This document shows positions 7,676 to 58,466 of a stretch of DNA of 62,126 bases, piece by piece; the first letter of the stretch is position 1, and each line of letters opens with the position of its first letter. The notes below the pieces were generated by a model. That model worked only from the letters and a program-made list of their open reading frames with translations. It did no database searches and was not told the origin of the DNA. Location: positions 1 through 62,126 of IMG/VR virus record IMGVR_UViG_3300045996_000468. One strand, given 5' to 3'. A program made the translations under genes and the position numbers. The stretch is from a virus (taxonomy: Duplodnaviria > Caudoviricetes).

Positions 7676-8368
7676 ATGGTCGCTACTGTTTTCTCTGAGA
7701 CCCTGCACGACGGCGCTTTCATCGTGCAGGAAGGTCCGGGCTTCTACAGCCGGGACAGCCTGACCGTCGCAGCGTCGCAGACGCTTACGCCGGGCGAAGT
7801 CTGCGGCATTGCGCTCACTGCCGCGCTCGCCACCGCTGGCGCAACGGCGTCGGTTGCTGCTGAAGCAACCAACACCGGCAACGGCGTCTTCACGATCGAT
7901 CCGACGAACCCGGTTCTGGCCGATGGCAAGAATGGCGTCTATCGCGTCGTGTGTATCGAAACGAACGCCAACCTCGGCACGTTCGAAGTGTTCGATCCGG
8001 CTGGCGTGTCGATCGGCCGCTACATCGTCGGCGCTGCCGCGTTCTCCAGCCAAATCAAGTTCACGATCGCGGACGGCGCGACGGACTTCGTTGCCGGCGA
8101 CGCGTTCAGCGTCACCGTTGGCGTCGAATGGGGCACCGATCGTCATGCGAAGGCGCTCGACACCGCCGGCACCGATGGTTCGCAGACGGCCGCGTGCATC
8201 GCGTTCGGCTCGACGACGACGGGCGTTGGCGAGACTGCCAAGGCGACGTTCATCACCCGCAACGCTGAAGTGCGCGCTTCCGATCTGACGTGGCCGGGCG
8301 GCATCACCGCCGCGCAAAAGGCTGCGGCGATCGAGCAGCTTCGCGGCGTCGGCATCATCCTGCGCTGA
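7676..8368 (+). CDS. Head decoration protein (gpD/HDPD-like) with internal beta-rich insertion
   Basis: YSRDSLT...GEV.G, DGSQTA, AEV...L.WP, L...GIILR; strong RBS; between protease and capsid genes. Confidence 0.88.
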   Translation: MVATVFSETLHDGAFIVQEGPGFYSRDSLTVAASQTLTPGEVCGIALTAALATAGATASVAAEATNTGNGVFTIDPTNPVLADGKNGVYRVVCIETNANLGTFEVFDPAGVSIGRYIVGAAAFSSQIKFTIADGATDFVAGDAFSVTVGVEWGTDRHAKALDTAGTDGSQTAACIAFGSTTTGVGETAKATFITRNAEVRASDLTWPGGITAAQKAAAIEQLRGVGIILR

Positions 8369-27506: not shown

Positions 27507-28580
27507 ATGGCTTATGATCTTGGCGGACCAACCACCGGCAATCTCGGCACGACGATCCGGCCGGGCGAGACGCGCGCAGCAAGCGCGCTCGATACGTGGT
27601 TTCAGGATTGCACGACGCCGGATGCCGAAGACGGCACGATGTTCGCATCCGCCATCTTCAATGAATGGCTGGCATGGATGCGCGAAATCGCGCGCGTCAA
27701 CGGCAACACGGGCGGCGGCTCGCCGGTTGTCGCAGAAGCGCTGAACGATGATGCGCTGCTGCTCAATGCGATCCGGCATTTGATCCAGCGCGGCCAGCCA
27801 TCCTACGCCGTCGACAGCGGCACGGCCGACGCGCTTGTCGTCACGCTCACGCCAGCGCTTGCCGAATACAAGGCGGGCGGTCAGCCGATCTGGATTAAGA
27901 AAAGCGCACTCGCGAACGCGACGACGACGCCGACCGTCAACATCAACGGCCTTGGCGCGAAGACGATCACCAACGTTGACGGCACCGCGCTCGATATCGG
28001 CCAGCTTGCGGCAGACGTTGCGTTCTCCGTCGTCTATGACGGCACGAACATGCGCATTGCGTCCGCGCCGCGCCCGGCAACGAAGACGGAAGCGGAAGCC
28101 GGCGTCTTGACTGGCGCTTACATTTCGCCGGCCACGCTGTTCAATCGACGCACGCCGTATTTCTTCGCGACCGGCAGCGTGTCGCAAAGCATCCCGGATA
28201 ACGCGGATACGAAGGTCACAAATCTCGACACGCTGTCGTCCAGCTACTTCAACACCGGATCGTCGTATGCGGCCGACACGTTCACGTGCGGCGCAAAGGA
28301 TGCTGGCGCATGGCTGTTCACCGGCTATTCCGCGCTCACGCTCGCCACTCCATCGGCCGGCGGCAAAGACTATCGCGCGGCGATCTGGAAGAATGGCGTC
28401 GGCGCGTCGTTCATGTCGTCCTATATCAGCGAAGCGTCGACTTACGGCATCATCGTTTCAACGCCGCTGATCGTCGCGGCCGGCGATACGATCGATCTGC
28501 GCGTGTTCCAGAACACCGGCACTAACCGCAACATCGGCGCGACGCAACTCGTCGGCGTTCGCCTCTCGGGCACGGTGTAA
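27507..28580 (+). CDS. Tail fibre protein with C1q/TNF-like C-terminal domain
   Basis: N-terminal baseplate anchor, YA.DSGTA.A...T.NINGLGAK segment, C-term F.A...FT....G.W.F...I.KNG...AGD.I.LRV.Q. Confidence 0.8.
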   Translation: MAYDLGGPTTGNLGTTIRPGETRAASALDTWFQDCTTPDAEDGTMFASAIFNEWLAWMREIARVNGNTGGGSPVVAEALNDDALLLNAIRHLIQRGQPSYAVDSGTADALVVTLTPALAEYKAGGQPIWIKKSALANATTTPTVNINGLGAKTITNVDGTALDIGQLAADVAFSVVYDGTNMRIASAPRPATKTEAEAGVLTGAYISPATLFNRRTPYFFATGSVSQSIPDNADTKVTNLDTLSSSYFNTGSSYAADTFTCGAKDAGAWLFTGYSALTLATPSAGGKDYRAAIWKNGVGASFMSSYISEASTYGIIVSTPLIVAAGDTIDLRVFQNTGTNRNIGATQLVGVRLSGTV

Positions 28581-28582
28581 GC

Positions 28583-29392
28583 ATGCCGCTGATCATCAAC
28601 GATCCGAACACGACGCAAGCGCTGTCGTCCGATATCGTGAACTCGACGCCGAACGGTGCCGCGATCATCATCGGGCCGAACGCGCACAATACGCGTGTGA
28701 TCGTCGATCGACAGGTCGTCAATCACGGCGCGCTGCCGATCAACGATGCTTCGGTCGGCATTCTCATTCAAGGCGCGTCGAACGTGACGCTGATCGGGCA
28801 CGGCGGGTATCTCGCCGGCTTCAAGTATGGCGTTGCAGCCAGCGCGCCATCTTTCCGAACGACGGTGCGCGGGCTCACGATCCGCGACAGCCGCGCGTCG
28901 GCAATCACGCATGTTGGCGATCGCTTGACGGTGCGCGACTGTGAAATCGAGGAAGTCGGCGGCGCGTCGCTCAACGTGTTCGGCACAGAATTTTTCTATG
29001 GCATCCGATCAATGGGGCGGCGGCCGACGATCATCAACAACGTCATTCGCAACGTCGTCTGCCCGGTGTGGGAAGCGGTCGGCATTTCATCCGACAGTCG
29101 CGGCGAGCGCGGCGTGATCAAAGGCAACTCGCTGATCAACGACGAACTTGCGACCGGGCTCACGCCTCATAATCTTCATCACTCATGGGGCATATGGGTC
29201 GGTGACGAGCCCGGCTTCGACGAAGACTTGAACATCACACACAACTTGCTGCGCAACTGGCAAACCGGCTTCGGCTTGGCGGGCAACTCGCAAGGCATTC
29301 TTGGCGTGTCGAATGTTCTCGCCGGCTTCGAGACCGCAGCGAACAACATTCCTGATCACTGGCATCCGGGTTGGCCGGGCGATCCGGACTGA
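28583..29392 (+). CDS. Right-handed beta-helix repeat protein (possible depolymerase or receptor-binding protein)
   Basis: Repeated GI.I....V.I..N.I stacks; directly follows the fibre gene. Confidence 0.7.
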   Translation: MPLIINDPNTTQALSSDIVNSTPNGAAIIIGPNAHNTRVIVDRQVVNHGALPINDASVGILIQGASNVTLIGHGGYLAGFKYGVAASAPSFRTTVRGLTIRDSRASAITHVGDRLTVRDCEIEEVGGASLNVFGTEFFYGIRSMGRRPTIINNVIRNVVCPVWEAVGISSDSRGERGVIKGNSLINDELATGLTPHNLHHSWGIWVGDEPGFDEDLNITHNLLRNWQTGFGLAGNSQGILGVSNVLAGFETAANNIPDHWHPGWPGDPD

Positions 29393-35530: not shown

Positions 35531-35809
35531 TCATGAGCGGCGCAGTTCATCGGGCTTCGCGGCTGCGACCGTCAGCGACGGAAAGAATGCAGAAATCGGT
35601 TCGTCTAACAGCTTGGCGATCGCGAACAGCGTGCTTGCCGGAATGCGCGTGACGCCGGTTTCGTACTTGTTCACTTGCTGCGGCAAGAGCCCGAGTTTGT
35701 CCGCCATCTTGCGCGCTTCTATCCCGTAGCGCATGCGCACGGTTCTGATGTGTCGACCTATGTGCAGGTCGACCGAAGTCGGCTTCGTCATTTTTAATCT
35801 TTGCTCCAT
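35531..35809 (-). CDS. XRE-family HTH transcriptional regulator
   Basis: VD.HIG..IR..R...G.....A.KLG...QQV.KYE.G..RI.AS.L..IA..L..PIS.FF, the alphaproteobacterial XRE signature. Confidence 0.9.
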   Translation of the reverse strand: MEQRLKMTKPTSVDLHIGRHIRTVRMRYGIEARKMADKLGLLPQQVNKYETGVTRIPASTLFAIAKLLDEPISAFFPSLTVAAAKPDELRRS

Positions 35810-35829
35810 TGCGCGCCGATAGGAAAAAA

Positions 35830-35852
35830 TTGGCGAAGCGCGCATTCGCCAA
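35830..35852. promoter_or_regulatory. Candidate operator, inverted repeat TTGGCGAA-N7-TTCGCCAA
   Basis: Perfect 8-bp inverted repeat just upstream of the XRE gene in a divergent intergenic region. Confidence 0.5.
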
Positions 35853-35886
35853 ACTGCATTTTGTTCGGGATTTTGTAAAGTTCTCT

Positions 35887-35915
35887 TTGACGCTTTTCCC
35901 TGTCGCGCGTAGGCT
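35887..35915 (+). promoter_or_regulatory. sigma70-like promoter TTGACG-N17-TAGGCT
   Basis: Near-consensus hexamers with 17-nt spacing upstream of the 36022 gene. Confidence 0.6.
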
Positions 35916-36021
35916 TCGCGCAACCTGATTTGCAGAATTCCCCGGCCGGACTTTAATCCCCACACCGAACAAGCGAACGACGCCGGCCGGGCCGTCGTGT
36001 CGCTTCAGCAAGGGGCCATAC

Positions 36022-39512: not shown

Positions 39513-39781
39513 TTGCTCTTCGCCTTTCTGCGCTTCGCGCTCTTGCGTTTCAAAACCTTGCGCGGCCGCCCGCGCGTGGCCTTATTCAACGTCGCTTCAT
39601 CCGGCATCTGAAAGACGCCGGGCTTCGTGCGCGGCTTGCGCTTCGGCATCGGATTATCGAGTGATGATCCGGGCTTCAGCGGCTCGGCTGATCGAATGCC
39701 GGGCCTAAAGTAATTGTCACCGCGCCGCATTCGCAGCGCGATCACGCTCGCCTCTTTCGGGCCTATCTCTCTTTTCGCCAT
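39509..39781 (-). CDS. Small basic protein with RGRPRK (AT-hook-like) motif
   Basis: GGGAAG RBS; Lys/Arg-rich C-terminus. Confidence 0.55.
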   Translation of the reverse strand: MAKREIGPKEASVIALRMRRGDNYFRPGIRSAEPLKPGSSLDNPMPKRKPRTKPGVFQMPDEATLNKATRGRPRKVLKRKSAKRRKAKSK

Positions 39782-39790
39782 GTGCTTCCC

Positions 39791-40546
39791 CTACAGTGAC
39801 ACGCCGCGACGGCGCAATTCGTGTTGGCAAGTGAAGATCATGTCTTCGTCGTCTTTGAACGTGTCGACGATCCATCGCAGATAGCCGGCATCGATCTGAT
39901 CGAACGTCAAATCTTTCAGCTTAGGATCGTTGCGCGTGCCGCCGATCGGTGTCGCTGCGATCCTGCACCGATAGAGTAATGCAGGCTGCGAGCTAATCTC
40001 GATCATGTCAGCGATCGTCAGCTTCGCGAGCGCGCGAACAAGCACGCTCGCAGTGACGAAAGTGTCCGCGCCCGCGCGGTGCGGCGGATGCGCCCGCGCC
40101 GGATCAAGCTTCAAGCGAAGTGCATACGCCATCGCCCAATTTTTATGGCTGTCCAGTTTCGGCGCGAGACGAAGCGAGACTTTCCACGTGCAAATCCATG
40201 GCGCATTCGTCGGCGCGAGATTGGCAAGGCGTTCTCGATCGAAAGATGCCACGTGCGCAGCGTAGGCTTCGATCGGGTCGACCGTTCCGTCTTTATGCGT
40301 GAATGGCTCGTAAACGCCATGATCGCGGATCACTTCGGAAAGCAACGGCTTCCCCTTCACGTCTTCGTCGACAATATGATGCGTCGCCATTGCGCCGAAC
40401 TCGATCAAGCAACCGGGATCGACCAGCCATGACCGCGTTTGCCCGATCGTCCATTCGCCATCCGTCATCCGAAAAACATCGGTGTGCGCTATCTCGACGA
40501 CTTCGCCGTTCAGCCCGGTTGTTTCAGTGTCAAGAACTCGCAACAT
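39791..40546 (-). CDS. DEDDh 3'-5' exonuclease (ExoX-like)
   Basis: LDTETTG, AH.A.FD, WICT.K, HRA..D motifs; GGGAGG RBS. Confidence 0.92.
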   Translation of the reverse strand: MLRVLDTETTGLNGEVVEIAHTDVFRMTDGEWTIGQTRSWLVDPGCLIEFGAMATHHIVDEDVKGKPLLSEVIRDHGVYEPFTHKDGTVDPIEAYAAHVASFDRERLANLAPTNAPWICTWKVSLRLAPKLDSHKNWAMAYALRLKLDPARAHPPHRAGADTFVTASVLVRALAKLTIADMIEISSQPALLYRCRIAATPIGGTRNDPKLKDLTFDQIDAGYLRWIVDTFKDDEDMIFTCQHELRRRGVSL

Positions 40547-40569
40547 TTCCCCCTCCCTTTTTCTTCCAA

Positions 40570-41059
40570 AAACAAAAAGCCTGCCATGCCATGCCCAACG
40601 CGGCTGCGCCGGTCCCCGACGAGCGACGCCTGCCGTGCTGCGCCATGCCTAACCACGCGCGGAAGTGCCTCGACACGCCCGCCCTGCCATGCCCACACAC
40701 GCCACGCATTGCCCTGCCGATCCGGTCCAAGCCTGCCATGCCTATGCGTGCCACGCCTGCCAAACCGCGCCATGCCAAGCCAAGCCTAAACGTGCCCAAC
40801 CCCGACGGGCCTGCCGTGCCATGATCTGCCGCGCCTCGTCCTGCCGTGCCGTTCCCGTTCACGCCTGCCGGGCGTCGCCGATGCTTGCGCAGCCCTGCGC
40901 ATCCATGCCTTGCCTGCCGCGCCTAACCAACGCCTTGACGAGACAAACCCCGCCGATCCGTGCCTAGCCTGCCAAGCCCGGACATGCCTAGCGCGAACTA
41001 GCCTAGCCATGCCTGCCGAACCTAACCGCGCCTGTCACGCCTAACCGCGCCCGATTGCA
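40570..41059 (-). ncRNA. Putative multi-unit guide RNA precursor with gapped dinucleotide code
   Basis: Co-oriented with and directly downstream of the RAMP-like gene pair; ends in GGCAGGC-UUUUUGUUUUU; the dinucleotides decode to conserved protein motifs. Confidence 0.75.
40579..41053. repeat. Array of 5-nt steps (+ strand RCC-NN; - strand NN-GGY) divided by GCCTGCC/GGCAGGC into 10-11 units
   Basis: Boundaries at 40579, 40628, 40677 (GCCCGCC), 40731, 40755, 40809, 40863, 40912, 40967, 41011 and 41030 (GCCTGTC); spacings 49,49,54,24,54,54,49,55,44,19 (5n+4 except one). By hand count 54 of 86 triplets are exact RCC. Confidence 0.95.
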
Positions 41060-41509
41060 TCACGCGCTTGCGCGTGACGCCGTCTTGTTCGGCCGCTTGT
41101 CTTTCGCTCGATCGACAGCGGACCAAACTTCGTTGAGCGCTTGCACACGTTGAAACTTCGCTTGCACGCGCGATAGTTCTTTCATCGCATCATCAAAAAG
41201 AACTTCCATCAAGTCGCGCGATGCTGCGACTTCATCGATCGCCCGATATCCGCCGCCGTCGACGCGGTCGATCGACAGTGACACCAGCACGGGCGATCCA
41301 TCCGCCTGCACAACATGCAACTGGATCAATCGACGCGCTTGCCAAAGGCGATATTCCTTCGCGGCTTCGGCGTCATCCCAAATGAACATTGAGTTCAGTT
41401 CGCTGCGCTTATTCTTGCGCGCGAAGTCGACGACATCTTCAGCGTGAAGCATGCCGTCTTTGCTGGCGGCTTTCACCGCCAGCAATTCATTTTTCAGCTT
41501 TACCGACAT
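41060..41509 (-). CDS. Accessory protein of the RAMP-like/array locus
   Basis: G.L....VV..A.....L...F.WDD.EAA..YRL.QAR.LI phage family; GGAG RBS; its stop codon abuts the array. Confidence 0.82.
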   Translation of the reverse strand: MSVKLKNELLAVKAASKDGMLHAEDVVDFARKNKRSELNSMFIWDDAEAAKEYRLWQARRLIQLHVVQADGSPVLVSLSIDRVDGGGYRAIDEVAASRDLMEVLFDDAMKELSRVQAKFQRVQALNEVWSAVDRAKDKRPNKTASRASA

Positions 41510-41523
41510 TTCGCTCCGTTCCT

Positions 41524-42240
41524 TTACGATACGAGTTCAAACAATCCCCAACCAAGCCCGGCAGAATTGCGACTGTCTGGCCGCCCCTCACCGATGCCGA
41601 CTTGCAAGCCGACGCGCGCGAACAAGTTCGCAACGTCGCTTGCGGAAAACTGCGCGGCATCCCAACGAATGCGCACGACAGCTTCCCAACCTTCGCGCCA
41701 CATCGGGCGGCACCGAATATCGGTGCTGCCGTTGTCGTTTCGTGCTGGCGCGAAATGCCGTTCCGGATCGCCCTTCGTGATCTTCACAAGTGGCGTCCCG
41801 TCGACGGCATCGAAGCCGTCCGCCTCGACGAACAGCGACAGCTTCGCCAGCGTCATCTTGAAGCCGATCGTTCGGCACGCGGATATCATCGCGTTTCGGA
41901 ATGCCGGCGCGGGAATGCCGCACCATCCTTCGGTCGACTTGTGTTTCGCGCCTTCGAAGACGGCGTCGAAATCTTTCGGATCGCGCTGGCGTCCTTTGCG
42001 CGCCTGCGATCCGGCCATTTGCGTTTCGATCATCGTCTGTTGTGACTTCTGACTGAAAGCATGCTGCACATACGGCGACGTTCCGCGAATGCGGATCGCT
42101 GCGGTTTCGAACTTCGGCGGCGCGATGATCGCCTGTCGTGTGTTCGGATCGCTCGCGATCTTTTTTGCTGCTGTGATTTTCATCGGGACCACTTCAGCGG
42201 TGGCGACTTTCTTTGGCTTAGGCACTTGCGTTTGCTCCAT
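41524..42240 (-). CDS. Cas7/RAMP-fold-like RNA-binding protein (putative guide-RNA effector)
   Basis: N-terminal strand I.I.G.SPY..H, IP..AF.NAM..A helix (compare RAMP IPGSS.KG.LR), C-terminal Gly-rich loop G..VGIGEGRP......G.GWG.F. Confidence 0.75.
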   Translation of the reverse strand: MEQTQVPKPKKVATAEVVPMKITAAKKIASDPNTRQAIIAPPKFETAAIRIRGTSPYVQHAFSQKSQQTMIETQMAGSQARKGRQRDPKDFDAVFEGAKHKSTEGWCGIPAPAFRNAMISACRTIGFKMTLAKLSLFVEADGFDAVDGTPLVKITKGDPERHFAPARNDNGSTDIRCRPMWREGWEAVVRIRWDAAQFSASDVANLFARVGLQVGIGEGRPDSRNSAGLGWGLFELVS

Positions 42241-42287
42241 TTTAGAAAATGCGCTGTTGCGGCCAGCGCGTTGCCGGTTCGGTAGTT

Positions 42288-42554
42288 CTATTGCGGCGTC
42301 CCTCGCTCTTCCTCGATCGCCTGCAATCGATCGACGATCACCCTGCGAAGCGAAGTGACGACGGCGTCCGCGCCCTGCGCTTCGGCAACTTCGATCGCGT
42401 CTTCGAGCCCTTCAATGGTCGCGCGATTGAAAGCGGTCGCGAGAATTTCAAATCGATCGCTATCGGTTAAAGCTTGCGCCATCTGGCGGAAGACGCGGAC
42501 TTTCCACGCCGCGCGATCCTGCACAATGCGTTCGCCTTTCTCACTCAATGCCAT
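42288..42554 (-). CDS. Hypothetical protein
   Basis: AGGAG RBS; helical. Confidence 0.55.
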   Translation of the reverse strand: MALSEKGERIVQDRAAWKVRVFRQMAQALTDSDRFEILATAFNRATIEGLEDAIEVAEAQGADAVVTSLRRVIVDRLQAIEEERGTPQ

Positions 42555-42927
42555 CGTGTTTTGCTCCTGCTATGGCGTTGCGGTCTAGTACGGCTTCGAT
42601 CTGCTTGTTCAGTTCGTCGCTGACGATTGTGAAAGCTTTGACGGCTTTCAATGCTTCAAGCCGCGCCGCCAATTCGTGCGGCGTCGGTTCGCTCTTGGTG
42701 CGATCGCGGTTATCGATGCCCCACGTCTCGCCGCCGTAGCGCTGGCGCAGTTCGTCTAGCGATAGGCGTGGCGCGTCGCGCTGGCGTTCGCGACGGCGTA
42801 TCTCTGCGGCTTCCGCATTCTCGCGCGCAATCGTGTTGTGCGCGGCGTTGCGCTGCTTGCGCGCTTCAAACTCGCGCTGCATTTCGCGCTGCGCTTCGTC
42901 CCATGCAATGAAGTCGTCAGGCATCAC
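42541..42927 (-). CDS. Hypothetical protein
   Basis: Part of the coupled - strand run. Confidence 0.55.
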   Translation of the reverse strand: MMPDDFIAWDEAQREMQREFEARKQRNAAHNTIARENAEAAEIRRRERQRDAPRLSLDELRQRYGGETWGIDNRDRTKSEPTPHELAARLEALKAVKAFTIVSDELNKQIEAVLDRNAIAGAKHDGIE

Positions 42928-43085
42928 TCTCGTCCATCGCTTCAGCGACTAAGCACGCCGTCGACACATACAGCGCGCCGCTCGGCGCGATCATTCGTTC
43001 GGGTTTGTCGGTGAACGTCAGGATGCCGAAATAACGTAGCGCGCCGACGTTGATGCACCAAGCATCAAGAAACTCTTGCGGGTTG

Positions 43086-45069: not shown

Positions 45070-45607
45070 TGATCAGTCTTTCCGCGATGCTGGCTCGCCA
45101 TTTTTCCATTGCAACAATTTCCCGCGCGATCTTACGAAGCTGTGGCGGGCGCGGCCCAAGCCGATAGAGGAACGGCGAACCGTCGCTGTCCAATCCGGCA
45201 TCACCGCAATTCCAGCGACGGAACGCTTCGCGGATTGCCCACACGGGCACGTCGTCGATCGCGTCGCGGAACGCTTCGCCCCACGCCATATCATCGGCTT
45301 CCGACTTCTCGCGCGGCCCGTACACCGATGCGATCTTGACGACGATCGTTGCCGCTTCGAGCGCGGCCGCGTTGCTTGCGTTCGGTGTTGAGTTGACCAG
45401 CGATTGCGTCACCGCTTCGCGATAGTCCTGCACTTGCCTGCGCTCGTGCGGCGGAAGCGGAAGCCGCGCAGCGATCTGCCGCGCGACTTCGTCCGCCCTA
45501 CTGTTTCGAAGGTTGTCGCAAAAATGCTGAAGCCATTGCGGTAGCGCGTCCAGCGGCGCGGCGATTGATTGCGGCTGTCTTGGGGTCGGTGTCTGGCGGC
45601 GTGTCAT
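45041..45607 (-). CDS. Putative replication helicase loader/partner
   Basis: AF.DAI.DVP.WAI.EA.RRW..G...P.P..LR motif, commonly found after phage initiators. Confidence 0.55.
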   Translation of the reverse strand: MTRRQTPTPRQPQSIAAPLDALPQWLQHFCDNLRNSRADEVARQIAARLPLPPHERRQVQDYREAVTQSLVNSTPNASNAAALEAATIVVKIASVYGPREKSEADDMAWGEAFRDAIDDVPVWAIREAFRRWNCGDAGLDSDGSPFLYRLGPRPPQLRKIAREIVAMEKWRASIAERLINGKATDQHS

Positions 45608-46121
45608 GGCTCATGCTCAATTGGTTTTGATACTCTTCGGATCGAAGGAAGCGGCGCGCTTGCATCACGTATTCGGTGCCGATCTTGCCTTCGCGCTCAC
45701 ATCGCTCGCGATACGCGATCACGCCGCGAATGATCTGTTCGGGATTGTTGCCGCGCTTGATCGCAGCGTCCCATGCTGTCTTTGCATCGCGCCGGCTGTC
45801 GGTGCCGCCGCGCCTTGGTCGCTCACGCCAGAACACTTCGAACGTCCACACGTCGCCCGGCGCTGGCGGAACGTTCGTCGGAACGTTCGTCGGCGTGACC
45901 GTCACAAGTTGCCGGCTAACGTCGGCGTTGACCATGAACGATAACTGTTGCGCGCATTGCTGCACTTTCGTCAGCCGTCGCAGTGCGTCGGCCGTTTCCT
46001 TCAAGAGCGCATAGCCCGCGCCTTTCGGCTTGTCCTTATGCGCTTCCAAGAATTCATCCGCACGCCTTACAAGATCACGAACGCCATCCCCTTTGGCGAT
46101 TGATCGCGCGGCCATTGCCAA
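45498..46121 (-). CDS. Replication initiator-like protein (C-terminal domain recognisable)
   Basis: FE.FW...PRR.G...A..AW..A.K.G..P..II.G...Y....GKIGTEY..QA..FL....Y. Confidence 0.7.
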   Translation of the reverse strand: MAMAARSIAKGDGVRDLVRRADEFLEAHKDKPKGAGYALLKETADALRRLTKVQQCAQQLSFMVNADVSRQLVTVTPTNVPTNVPPAPGDVWTFEVFWRERPRRGGTDSRRDAKTAWDAAIKRGNNPEQIIRGVIAYRERCEREGKIGTEYVMQARRFLRSEEYQNQLSMSHDTPPDTDPKTAAINRRAAGRATAMASAFLRQPSKQ

Positions 46122-58313: not shown

Positions 58314-58466
58314 AGCGGTTTTCCGCCGAAAAACGGGGCATCTGGCCCGGCCCGGGGCGGTGGAAAGGGGCCTTGCCGTAGAAAGCCGGTATAGCGGCCG
58401 GGTTGCCCGTGTGGCATTGTGCCTGCGCCGGTTGATTTGGCAGGGTAAGCCGGCAGGGGCAAAGCA

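Follow-up and report, generated by a model that had tools for sequence, protein, structure and literature searches.

The 62,126-nt viral contig IMGVR_UViG_3300045996_000468 (the window, by which we mean the whole stretch of DNA analysed) carries on its minus strand, at 40579-42240, a cassette of two small genes and a 481-nt non-coding array of 5-nt steps, which we identify, with a probability of roughly 0.88, as a VIPR (Viral Interference Programmable Repeat) system that a soil phage carries in its staggered-array form. Membership is supported by the homology of the 238-aa product to the Vipr protein of SUSP1, by its RAMP fold and by arrays standing beside 78 of 84 homologues. The locus has the minimal VIPR composition, a vipr gene with one vap, no cas genes and no CRISPR array. 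A first-pass annotation, made from the letters alone, had proposed a non-CRISPR RNA-guided system here and had suggested that a phage system of this architecture was recently reported under the name VIPR; this is borne out by two 2026 bioRxiv preprints (10.64898/2026.04.26.720920 and 10.64898/2026.04.26.720927), to which a further 2026 VIPR preprint can be added (10.64898/2026.10.15.759431). With the kind of system already published, novelty cannot be claimed, and the locus adds nothing categorically new. It is a compact example, two small genes and a 481-nt array, of the array form about which least has been learned; its clade counts thousands of environmental relatives, and the opening codons of a capsid cement gene family provide it with a concrete putative natural target.

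VIPR, a CRISPR-like RNA-guided silencer of genes that phages turn on rival phages, is the first such system whose guide code is non-contiguous, and it has been put forward as an ancestor of the CRISPR RAMPs. In the portions of the preprints drawn on throughout this text, its parts are given as Vipr, a RAMP protein of minimal size, the accessory gene vap and vrRNAs built of 9-16 YNNGG repeats (10.64898/2026.04.26.720920), with one protomer per repeat and NN dinucleotides that read double-stranded DNA while skipping one base per step (10.64898/2026.04.26.720920, 10.64898/2026.04.26.720927). Most targets lie in coding regions of rival phages or satellites, where the skipped base is the wobble base (10.64898/2026.04.26.720920). 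The same preprint, whose set holds 667 systems, distinguishes seven VIPR types and several array forms, including 'staggered arrays with overlapping vrRNAs', in which the vrRNAs derive from 1-nt overlapping positions. In those portions, small-RNA sequencing confirmed two forms only, single vrRNAs and arrays interspersed with ribozymes (10.64898/2026.04.26.720920), and the mechanism was shown for the SUSP1 and Pseudomonas fulva type II systems only (10.64898/2026.04.26.720920, 10.64898/2026.04.26.720927).

A Vipr homologue with a minimal RAMP fold

The vipr gene (41524-42240, minus strand) is an intact open reading frame (ORF) of 238 aa, as first annotated, and its product contains both motifs that had been quoted from it, IPAPAFRNAM at residues 109-118 and GLQVGIGEGRP...GLGWGLF at residues 211-234. 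The protein matched no Pfam, NCBIfam or PADLOC model, and its match in PHROG is to family 4652 (E = 1e-10), of unknown function. Its homologue family is large, with 6030 proteins at E <= 1e-3 in a 90%-clustered collection and 2147 representatives at 50% identity. The single sequence had no match in the PDB; a profile of 100 family members (A1) retrieved 36pp_D, 'SUSP1 Vipr protein', at E = 2.3e-5, the other row being a chance-level match to CopZ (E = 0.29). Searched against the SUSP1 genome (NC_028808.2), the profile found one site, 28522-28659 on the minus strand (E = 1.4e-6), lying in the vipr gene, which is annotated there as a hypothetical protein and followed by a 146-aa gene and then a 530-nt intergenic region. 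Aligned by hhalign, A1 and SUSP1 Vipr matched over 171 columns (window residues 46-238, SUSP1 residues 3-189) with a probability of 94.2 and E = 1.1e-7. On this sequence evidence, the 238-aa protein is a homologue of SUSP1 Vipr.

The alignment also allowed us to map the residues that contact the GGY triplet in SUSP1, as given in 10.64898/2026.04.26.720927. Four of the five contacts tested (H17, R138, D177, W178 and R179) are aligned and conserved, W178 being the exception: H17 falls on H60, the thumb residue R138 on R178 (R in 98 of 100 family members), D177 on E218 (E in 77 of 100) and R179 on R220 (R in all 100). SUSP1 M72, a further contact named there, aligns to M118. Within the glycine-rich G-loop, G211, G215, G219, R220 and G232 are invariant or nearly so across the family.

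An AlphaFold2 model of the protein (pLDDT 92.4, with lower confidence for residues 1-40) has an RRM core, a thumb hairpin at about residues 159-181 and a G-loop at 211-234, the thumb being so assigned because R178, which it carries, aligns to SUSP1 R138. Foldseek returned 45 PDB matches at E <= 1e-3, and among the matches listed all were Csm, Cmr or type VII complexes or Cas6. In an exhaustive VIA-align search, CRISPR RAMPs filled the top 28 rows, led by Cmr-beta 6s6b_I (Z = 12.2, root mean square deviation 3.2, 150 residues) and Csm3 9g9a_D (Z = 11.9); the fold library is older than the Vipr entries, so Vipr itself could not turn up. As modelled, the protein has a Cas7/Csm3/Cmr4-type RAMP fold in minimal form, and the first-pass suggestion of a RAMP/Cas7-like protein agrees with these searches.

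Isolated phages also carry the gene. Cyanophage Cy-LDV1 encodes a Vipr homologue with 61.6% identity, annotated as hypothetical (BK059895.1, 31484-32074, minus strand), and homologues of about 29% identity occur in the Gordonia phages ODay, UmaThurman and Ecliptus (MW534375.1, NC_031249.1 and OP820472.1). Despite the abundance of the family in metagenomes, only 5 of 50,697 isolate phage records contained a homologue, UmaThurman being counted twice.

A staggered array of pentamer guides

The array (40579-41059, minus strand) starts at the stop codon of the accessory gene, is 44% G and ends in GGCAGGC followed by TTTTTGTTTTT. Its pentameric structure was assessed against 1000 dinucleotide-preserving shuffles, revealing a lag-5 identity of 0.458 compared with 0.303 +/- 0.021 in the shuffles (maximum 0.361, with the observed value reached in 0 of 1000; z = 7.5), 41 GG-to-GG pairs at 5 nt compared with 15.8 +/- 3.4, and 12 occurrences of GGCAGG compared with a shuffle mean of 2.2 and a maximum of 8. 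The tract that had been described as about 475 nt of non-coding 5-nt steps is thus 481 nt long and strongly periodic. When the phase was set from the 3' end of each piece between GGCAGG motifs, 86 pentamers were obtained, with GG at positions 4-5 in 53 of them, close to an earlier hand count of 54 of 86 triplets, and the full YNNGG in 41. Runs of YNNGG extend to six consecutive pentamers, where VIPR calling takes at least four in tandem.

Two of the 12 GGCAGG motifs (at 40845 and 40718) lie in phase and are ordinary pentamers; the other ten are 4-nt steps that bound units. The parse yields ten tail-less units, all on the minus strand: U1 (41062-41016), U2 (41011-40972), U3 (40967-40917), U4 (40912-40868), U5 (40863-40814), U6 (40809-40760; NN = CC GG TG AC TA TT TT AT GC TT), U7 (40755-40736), U8 (40731-40687), U9 (40682-40633) and U10 (40628-40584). 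They contain 8, 8, 10 (plus 1 nt), 9, 10, 10, 4, 9, 10 and 9 pentamers, respectively, each unit being followed by CAGG. The punctuation by GGCAGGC into units of mostly 8-10 steps, proposed at first sight, was recovered by this parse, and the accompanying unit length of 5n+4 holds in eight of the ten.

In a scan of the window for GG periodicity, 41059-40579 was the sole such region; a weak spot at 58389-58393 on the plus strand proved on inspection not to be a vrRNA. ORFs overlapping the array (for example, 40530-40862 on the minus strand and 40665-40967 on the plus strand) were rejected as coding because no reading frame could accommodate a 5-nt period interrupted by 4-nt phase shifts. The array matched no Rfam family and no hammerhead ribozyme. 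Directly 3' of the last GGCAGGC, the T-rich tract TTTTTGTTTTT (40568-40578, minus strand) is likely, from its composition, to mark the end of the array transcript; a consensus scan called no hairpin terminator there.

Conservation of the cassette across relatives

The first-pass annotation had suggested examining homologues for adjacent 5-nt-periodic arrays. We examined 84 related loci (75 from IMG/VR and 9 from metagenome-assembled genomes of several phyla; 597 kb in total) and found a GG-periodic array on the same strand, within -600 to +2000 nt of vipr, in 78. Elsewhere in the 597 kb, no GG-periodic region occurred on the vipr strand and only two on the opposite strand. The six loci in which the array was not found were L018, L024, L031, L033, L072 and L045, the last with only 100 nt downstream. 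The other five had no GG-periodic array within 4 kb downstream, and a vap homologue was present in four of them and absent from L072. A different repeat consensus, or loss of the array, may account for these loci; the consensuses NNNGG, YNNNG and NNNNG are mentioned as alternatives in 10.64898/2026.04.26.720920.

Gene order varied among the relatives, comprising vipr-vap-array (the order of the window), vipr-array-vap and vipr-array-vap-array. The genes that flank the cassette in the window (exo, up88 and up128) were found in none of the 84 loci, and the cassette therefore moves as a unit.

The unit structure of the array is a property of the clade. Of 384 distances between successive GGCAGG[CT] motifs, 322 were 4 mod 5, and the distribution peaked at 44, 49, 54 and 59 nt. 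When 4-nt GG-xx-GG steps were collected from 102 arrays without presupposing the motif, xx was CA in 508 of 615, and the same arrays contained 46 clean 6-nt steps. Around the unit junctions GGCAGGC is conserved and nothing else, so the units have no structured 3' tail. In one group of 11 loci (L035-L050), pairs with 89-95% nucleotide-identical vipr genes shared 0 guides and pairs with identical vipr shared 3 of 7 or 7 of 10; the GGY triplets are thus kept while the NN dinucleotides turn over fast. Guide content changes much faster than the vipr gene does. Together, the 5n+4 spacing, the CA-specific junction and the guide turnover define what work on guide biogenesis in staggered arrays should seek.

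The accessory gene

The vap-like gene (41060-41509, minus strand), which begins 14 nt after vipr, is likewise intact as annotated and encodes 149 aa. Its product matched no Pfam, NCBIfam or PADLOC model, only unnamed viral clusters in the ESM Atlas and, as a profile, nothing in the PDB under E = 0.2; it did match PHROG 15946, of unknown function (E = 3e-12). The structural model (pLDDT 90.4) comprises an N-terminal domain (residues 1-96) and a long C-terminal helix (98-138). The domain is weakly winged-helix-like, resembling MecI, PerR, Fur, Z-alpha and forkhead domains at Z = 5-6, which is below the tool's trustworthy range. Six families of vap genes are described in 10.64898/2026.04.26.720920, some of them predicted winged-helix-like DNA binders; the vap product of the window may itself bind DNA. 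Among the related loci, 74 of 84 had a vap homologue downstream of vipr on the same strand, and 5 of the 10 misses had less than 400 nt of sequence after vipr.

Comparison with known systems

The closest characterized systems are the type II VIPRs of SUSP1 and a Pseudomonas fulva prophage, which, like that of the window, are phage-encoded and have a homologous Vipr (cryo-EM structures in 10.64898/2026.04.26.720927; PDB 36pp). With SUSP1 the window shares the order of vipr, an accessory gene of about 146-149 aa and a vrRNA region on one strand; with both it shares YNNGG guides of about 8-12 repeats and predicted targets that belong to other phages and have a wobble base as the skipped one. The SUSP1 vrRNAs differ in being separate genes, each with a leader and a structured hairpin tail of about 40 nt, and have no GGCAGG, whereas the units in the window abut through the 4-nt CA junction with no tail. 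Window Vipr additionally has an N-terminal extension of about 45 residues, modelled with low confidence. The structured 3' tail that follows type II repeats was not found in the analysis of junction conservation or in Rfam and ribozyme searches. Its absence excludes a type II architecture, though not VIPR, because tail-less staggered arrays are listed as VIPR in 10.64898/2026.04.26.720920. The window and its 84 relatives fit the 'staggered vrRNA arrays' of that preprint, as compared with the text of the fig. S18 legend, since a GGC|AGGC step of 4 nt amounts to a 1-nt overlap of two pentamers.

More distantly, the Cas7 family (Csm3, Cmr4, gRAMP/Cas7-11 and type IV Csf2) shares with window Vipr the RRM/RAMP fold, the thumb and the glycine-rich loop, at Z = 9-12. 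Fixed-step polymerization along a guide RNA is established for Cas7-family backbones and for SUSP1 Vipr. The step is 5 nt in VIPR, with three bases hidden and non-contiguous guide information, compared with 6 nt and one flipped base in Cas7. Unlike class 1 CRISPR-Cas, the window has no CRISPR repeats, Cas5, Cas6, Cas10 or Cas1-2.

Targets and the 1-nt skip

We scanned IMG/VR for targets of six window guides (U4, U5, U6, U8, U9 and U10), requiring the eight 3'-most NN to match without mismatch and then scoring the remaining NN. U6 gave 68 matches, among which all 20 NN bases were matched in five contigs (L119, L123, L128, L136 and L149) that share identical local sequence with a GC content of 0.65; a homologous contig (L118) matched 19, and the remaining 62 scored 0-2 of the four extra bases. 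The site extends from 6 nt before the ATG through codon 8 of a 111-aa Phage_cement_2 gene (PF09956, E = 3e-30). Every skipped base falls at a wobble position, and it is the coding strand to which the vrRNA would be complementary. By chance, about 0.1-0.25 complete U6 matches would be expected (about 0.25 under a uniform model, with the observed spread suggesting less).

The cement family is widespread, occurring in at least 561 IMG/VR loci. In the best 80 of these, the U6 score was 20 in 2, 19 in 6, 18 in 31, 17 in 22, 16 in 17 and 13 in 2, so that 78 of the 80 best homologues score at least 16 of 20. The first eight NN of U6 correspond to codon positions 1-2 of the near-invariant MKNYVQPG, and the variable part of the match is the two NN that lie in the 5' untranslated region of the target. 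The window's own decoration gene (7676-8368) is unrelated to this target. As judged by sequence matching, U6 is the only scanned window guide with a credible natural target.

None of the matches to U9 (25), U5 (28) or U10 (2) was complete. Full matches to two other guides were rejected as chance: one of 18/18 among the 5 matches to U8, in a contig with a GC content of 0.44 and with the skipped base at codon position 1 of the actual ORF, and two of 18/18 among the 18 matches to U4, in giant contigs with a GC content of 0.23. Closer to home, all ten window guides were scanned against the window and 75 related loci, revealing nothing above background under skips of 0, 1 or 2 and, under a skip of 3, matches to the array itself only; the guides therefore have no self-target there. 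Against three of the U6-matched proviruses, the best scores of the other nine guides equalled those of skip-0, skip-2 and skip-3 controls.

The skip rule was also assessed across the clade with 206 distinct guides of at least 9 NN, searched, once the arrays had been masked, against 1.33 Mb comprising vipr loci and the window. Three guides matched at least 90% of their NN under skip 1 (one at 20/20), compared with one under skip 0 and none under skip 2; two shuffled sets gave 0 and 0, and reversed guides gave 0.

Two of the relatives have matches worth describing in their own right. A guide of L005 (5362-5411) matches L006 (2611-2639) at 20/20 with skip 1 in wobble phase. The matched sequence encodes YGQPGVGKTT, the Walker A motif of an AAA_24 ATPase (PF13479) whose gene closely follows the L006 VIPR cassette, and the copy of the same gene in L005 itself matches at 17/20, with three mismatches. 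From these sequences, the pair looks like sibling-phage targeting with self-avoidance. A guide of L064 (4692-4746), whose Vipr is 50% identical to that of the window, matches the AAA_24 gene of a provirus (G001, L183; 3876-3907) at 20/22, also in wobble phase; this provirus belongs to the family matched by U6.

Proposed mechanism

By analogy with the published systems, the array would be transcribed on the minus strand after vipr and vap, and Vipr protomers would bind the RNA, one per pentamer. Each GGY triplet would be sequestered by thumb residue R178 and the G-loop (E218, R220), leaving the NN dinucleotides exposed. The exposed NN of a unit (8-10 pentamers) would then read double-stranded DNA through a gapped NNx code that passes over every third target base, and this reading would keep genes of competing phages or prophages from being transcribed. 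Expression of the RNA, its occupation by one protomer per pentamer, the binding to DNA and the silencing are all inferred here from published systems. The first-pass annotation had arrived at much the same scheme, with one protomer per pentamer, a hidden GGY and a presented NN, which agrees with the mechanism published for SUSP1 and the P. fulva type II system and would extend to the window by analogy.

The guides would have neither leader nor structured 3' tail and would be delimited by the conserved GGC-A-GGC junction, at which one step is cut to 4 nt. We infer that this CA junction ends one filament or marks a cut between guides. A broader and more tentative proposal, to which we give rather less than even odds, is that the GGC-A-GGC register step sets the guide boundaries, as filament end and start or as a cut site, and that the guides single out the most conserved codons. 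One transcript could then yield tail-less guides of 8-11 pentamers with no ribozyme, Cas6-like nuclease site or capping pseudoknot, and these would be directed at conserved codons of widespread phage genes, such as the MKNYVQPG start of the PF09956 cement gene and the Walker A motif of AAA_24. If this were true, one guide would disarm a whole family of rival phages.

Counter-evidence and alternative explanations

Several observations weigh against a functional VIPR system at this locus. A credible target was found for only one of the six scanned guides, and the full matches of U8 and U4 mean that perfect gapped matches do arise by chance. The clade-wide assessment of the skip rule rests on few matches (3 compared with 1 and 0), although its direction agrees with 10.64898/2026.04.26.720920. 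The sequencing runs matching 39700-43000 of the window were two soil-metagenome DNA runs, with no RNA run among them. In Vipr, SUSP1 W178, which stacks on G2, aligns to the invariant G219 and is followed by an 8-residue insertion in the G-loop; that W231 stands in for it is speculation. Between the accessory protein and SUSP1 vap1, hhalign detected no sequence similarity (probability 0.5). In the array, U3 has a 1-nt insertion between pentamers 7 and 8 (CAAGG C GTTGG) that puts its halves out of register, and may be a dead guide or contain a 6-nt step; the overall fraction of GG pentamers, 0.65, is the fourth lowest in the clade, where the median is 0.86.

The last two points are also what would be expected of a decaying, non-functional VIPR cassette, in which the genes are intact and the array has drifted until most units no longer load or target. 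The four pentamers of U7 and the five scanned guides with no credible target point the same way. We nevertheless regard decay as improbable, since both ORFs are intact and keep the near-invariant residues of the family, GGCAGG is kept at all junctions with 5n+4 in eight of ten units, and U6 has a perfect in-phase target. Internal degeneracy of vrRNAs is, moreover, noted as frequent in 10.64898/2026.04.26.720920. Since the rivals of a soil phage have been little sampled, guides with no match are to be expected, particularly in scans that needed eight NN without mismatch.

A functional VIPR system is likewise preferred to the proposal that the pentamer tract acts as DNA, as iterons or as a protein-binding or recombination site, with the RNA-binding role of the RAMP-like protein being unrelated to it. 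Such a role would suit the surroundings of the cassette, where genes for replication and recombination lie (an ORF resembling a replication initiator at 45498-46121, a DEDD-type exonuclease at 39791-40546 on the minus strand, and RecT) and the lack of an RNA run among the matching runs. It is difficult to reconcile with arrays that lie on the vipr strand in 78 of 84 loci, with only two regions on the opposite strand, and that travel with vipr and vap while the flanks change. The protein is also homologous to one solved in complex with such RNA, and fast NN turnover with GGY kept fits guides, not iterons; we consider this explanation very unlikely. Least credible is a lone, degenerate Cas7/Csm3 left over from a class 1 CRISPR-Cas effector and having nothing to do with the repeats, for although the best structural matches are Cmr4, Csm3 and gRAMP and the neighbouring exonuclease matches a 'CAS-associated' PADLOC model, the 62-kb contig has no cas genes and no CRISPR array, the sequence homology is to Vipr with no Cas family matched, and the exonuclease is linked to vipr in none of 84 loci.

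Genomic context and flanking features

The 62,126-bp contig encodes terminase, portal, prohead protease, decoration and major head proteins, tail sheath, tape measure, baseplate, endolysin, RecT and an exonuclease, and its head and tail gene set therefore indicates a myovirus-like phage. The VIPR cassette is placed in the leftward early/replication gene block. PADLOC, run on 74 ORFs plus the two cassette genes, found no cas genes apart from the DEDDh exonuclease model, and Tandem Repeats Finder found no CRISPR-like array in the contig and no period-5 row either; the non-CRISPR label given at first pass was correct.

Just upstream of vipr, a terminator-like hairpin (42251-42269, minus strand; a consensus match only) suggests that transcription of the cassette is independent of the gene upstream. 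The next gene 3' of the array, at 39791-40546, encodes a DEDD/RNase T-type exonuclease (PF00929, E = 2.5e-12; phrog_192) that matches the PADLOC model 'DEDDh, CAS-associated' at E = 3e-22. Its adjacency to the array is probably incidental, because a homologue stands beside vipr in none of the 84 related loci. Farther along the minus strand, a 144-aa helix-turn-helix ORF (35531-35965) matches the PADLOC RmrA/HTH_VI models (E = 5e-7) and is probably a phage transcriptional regulator.

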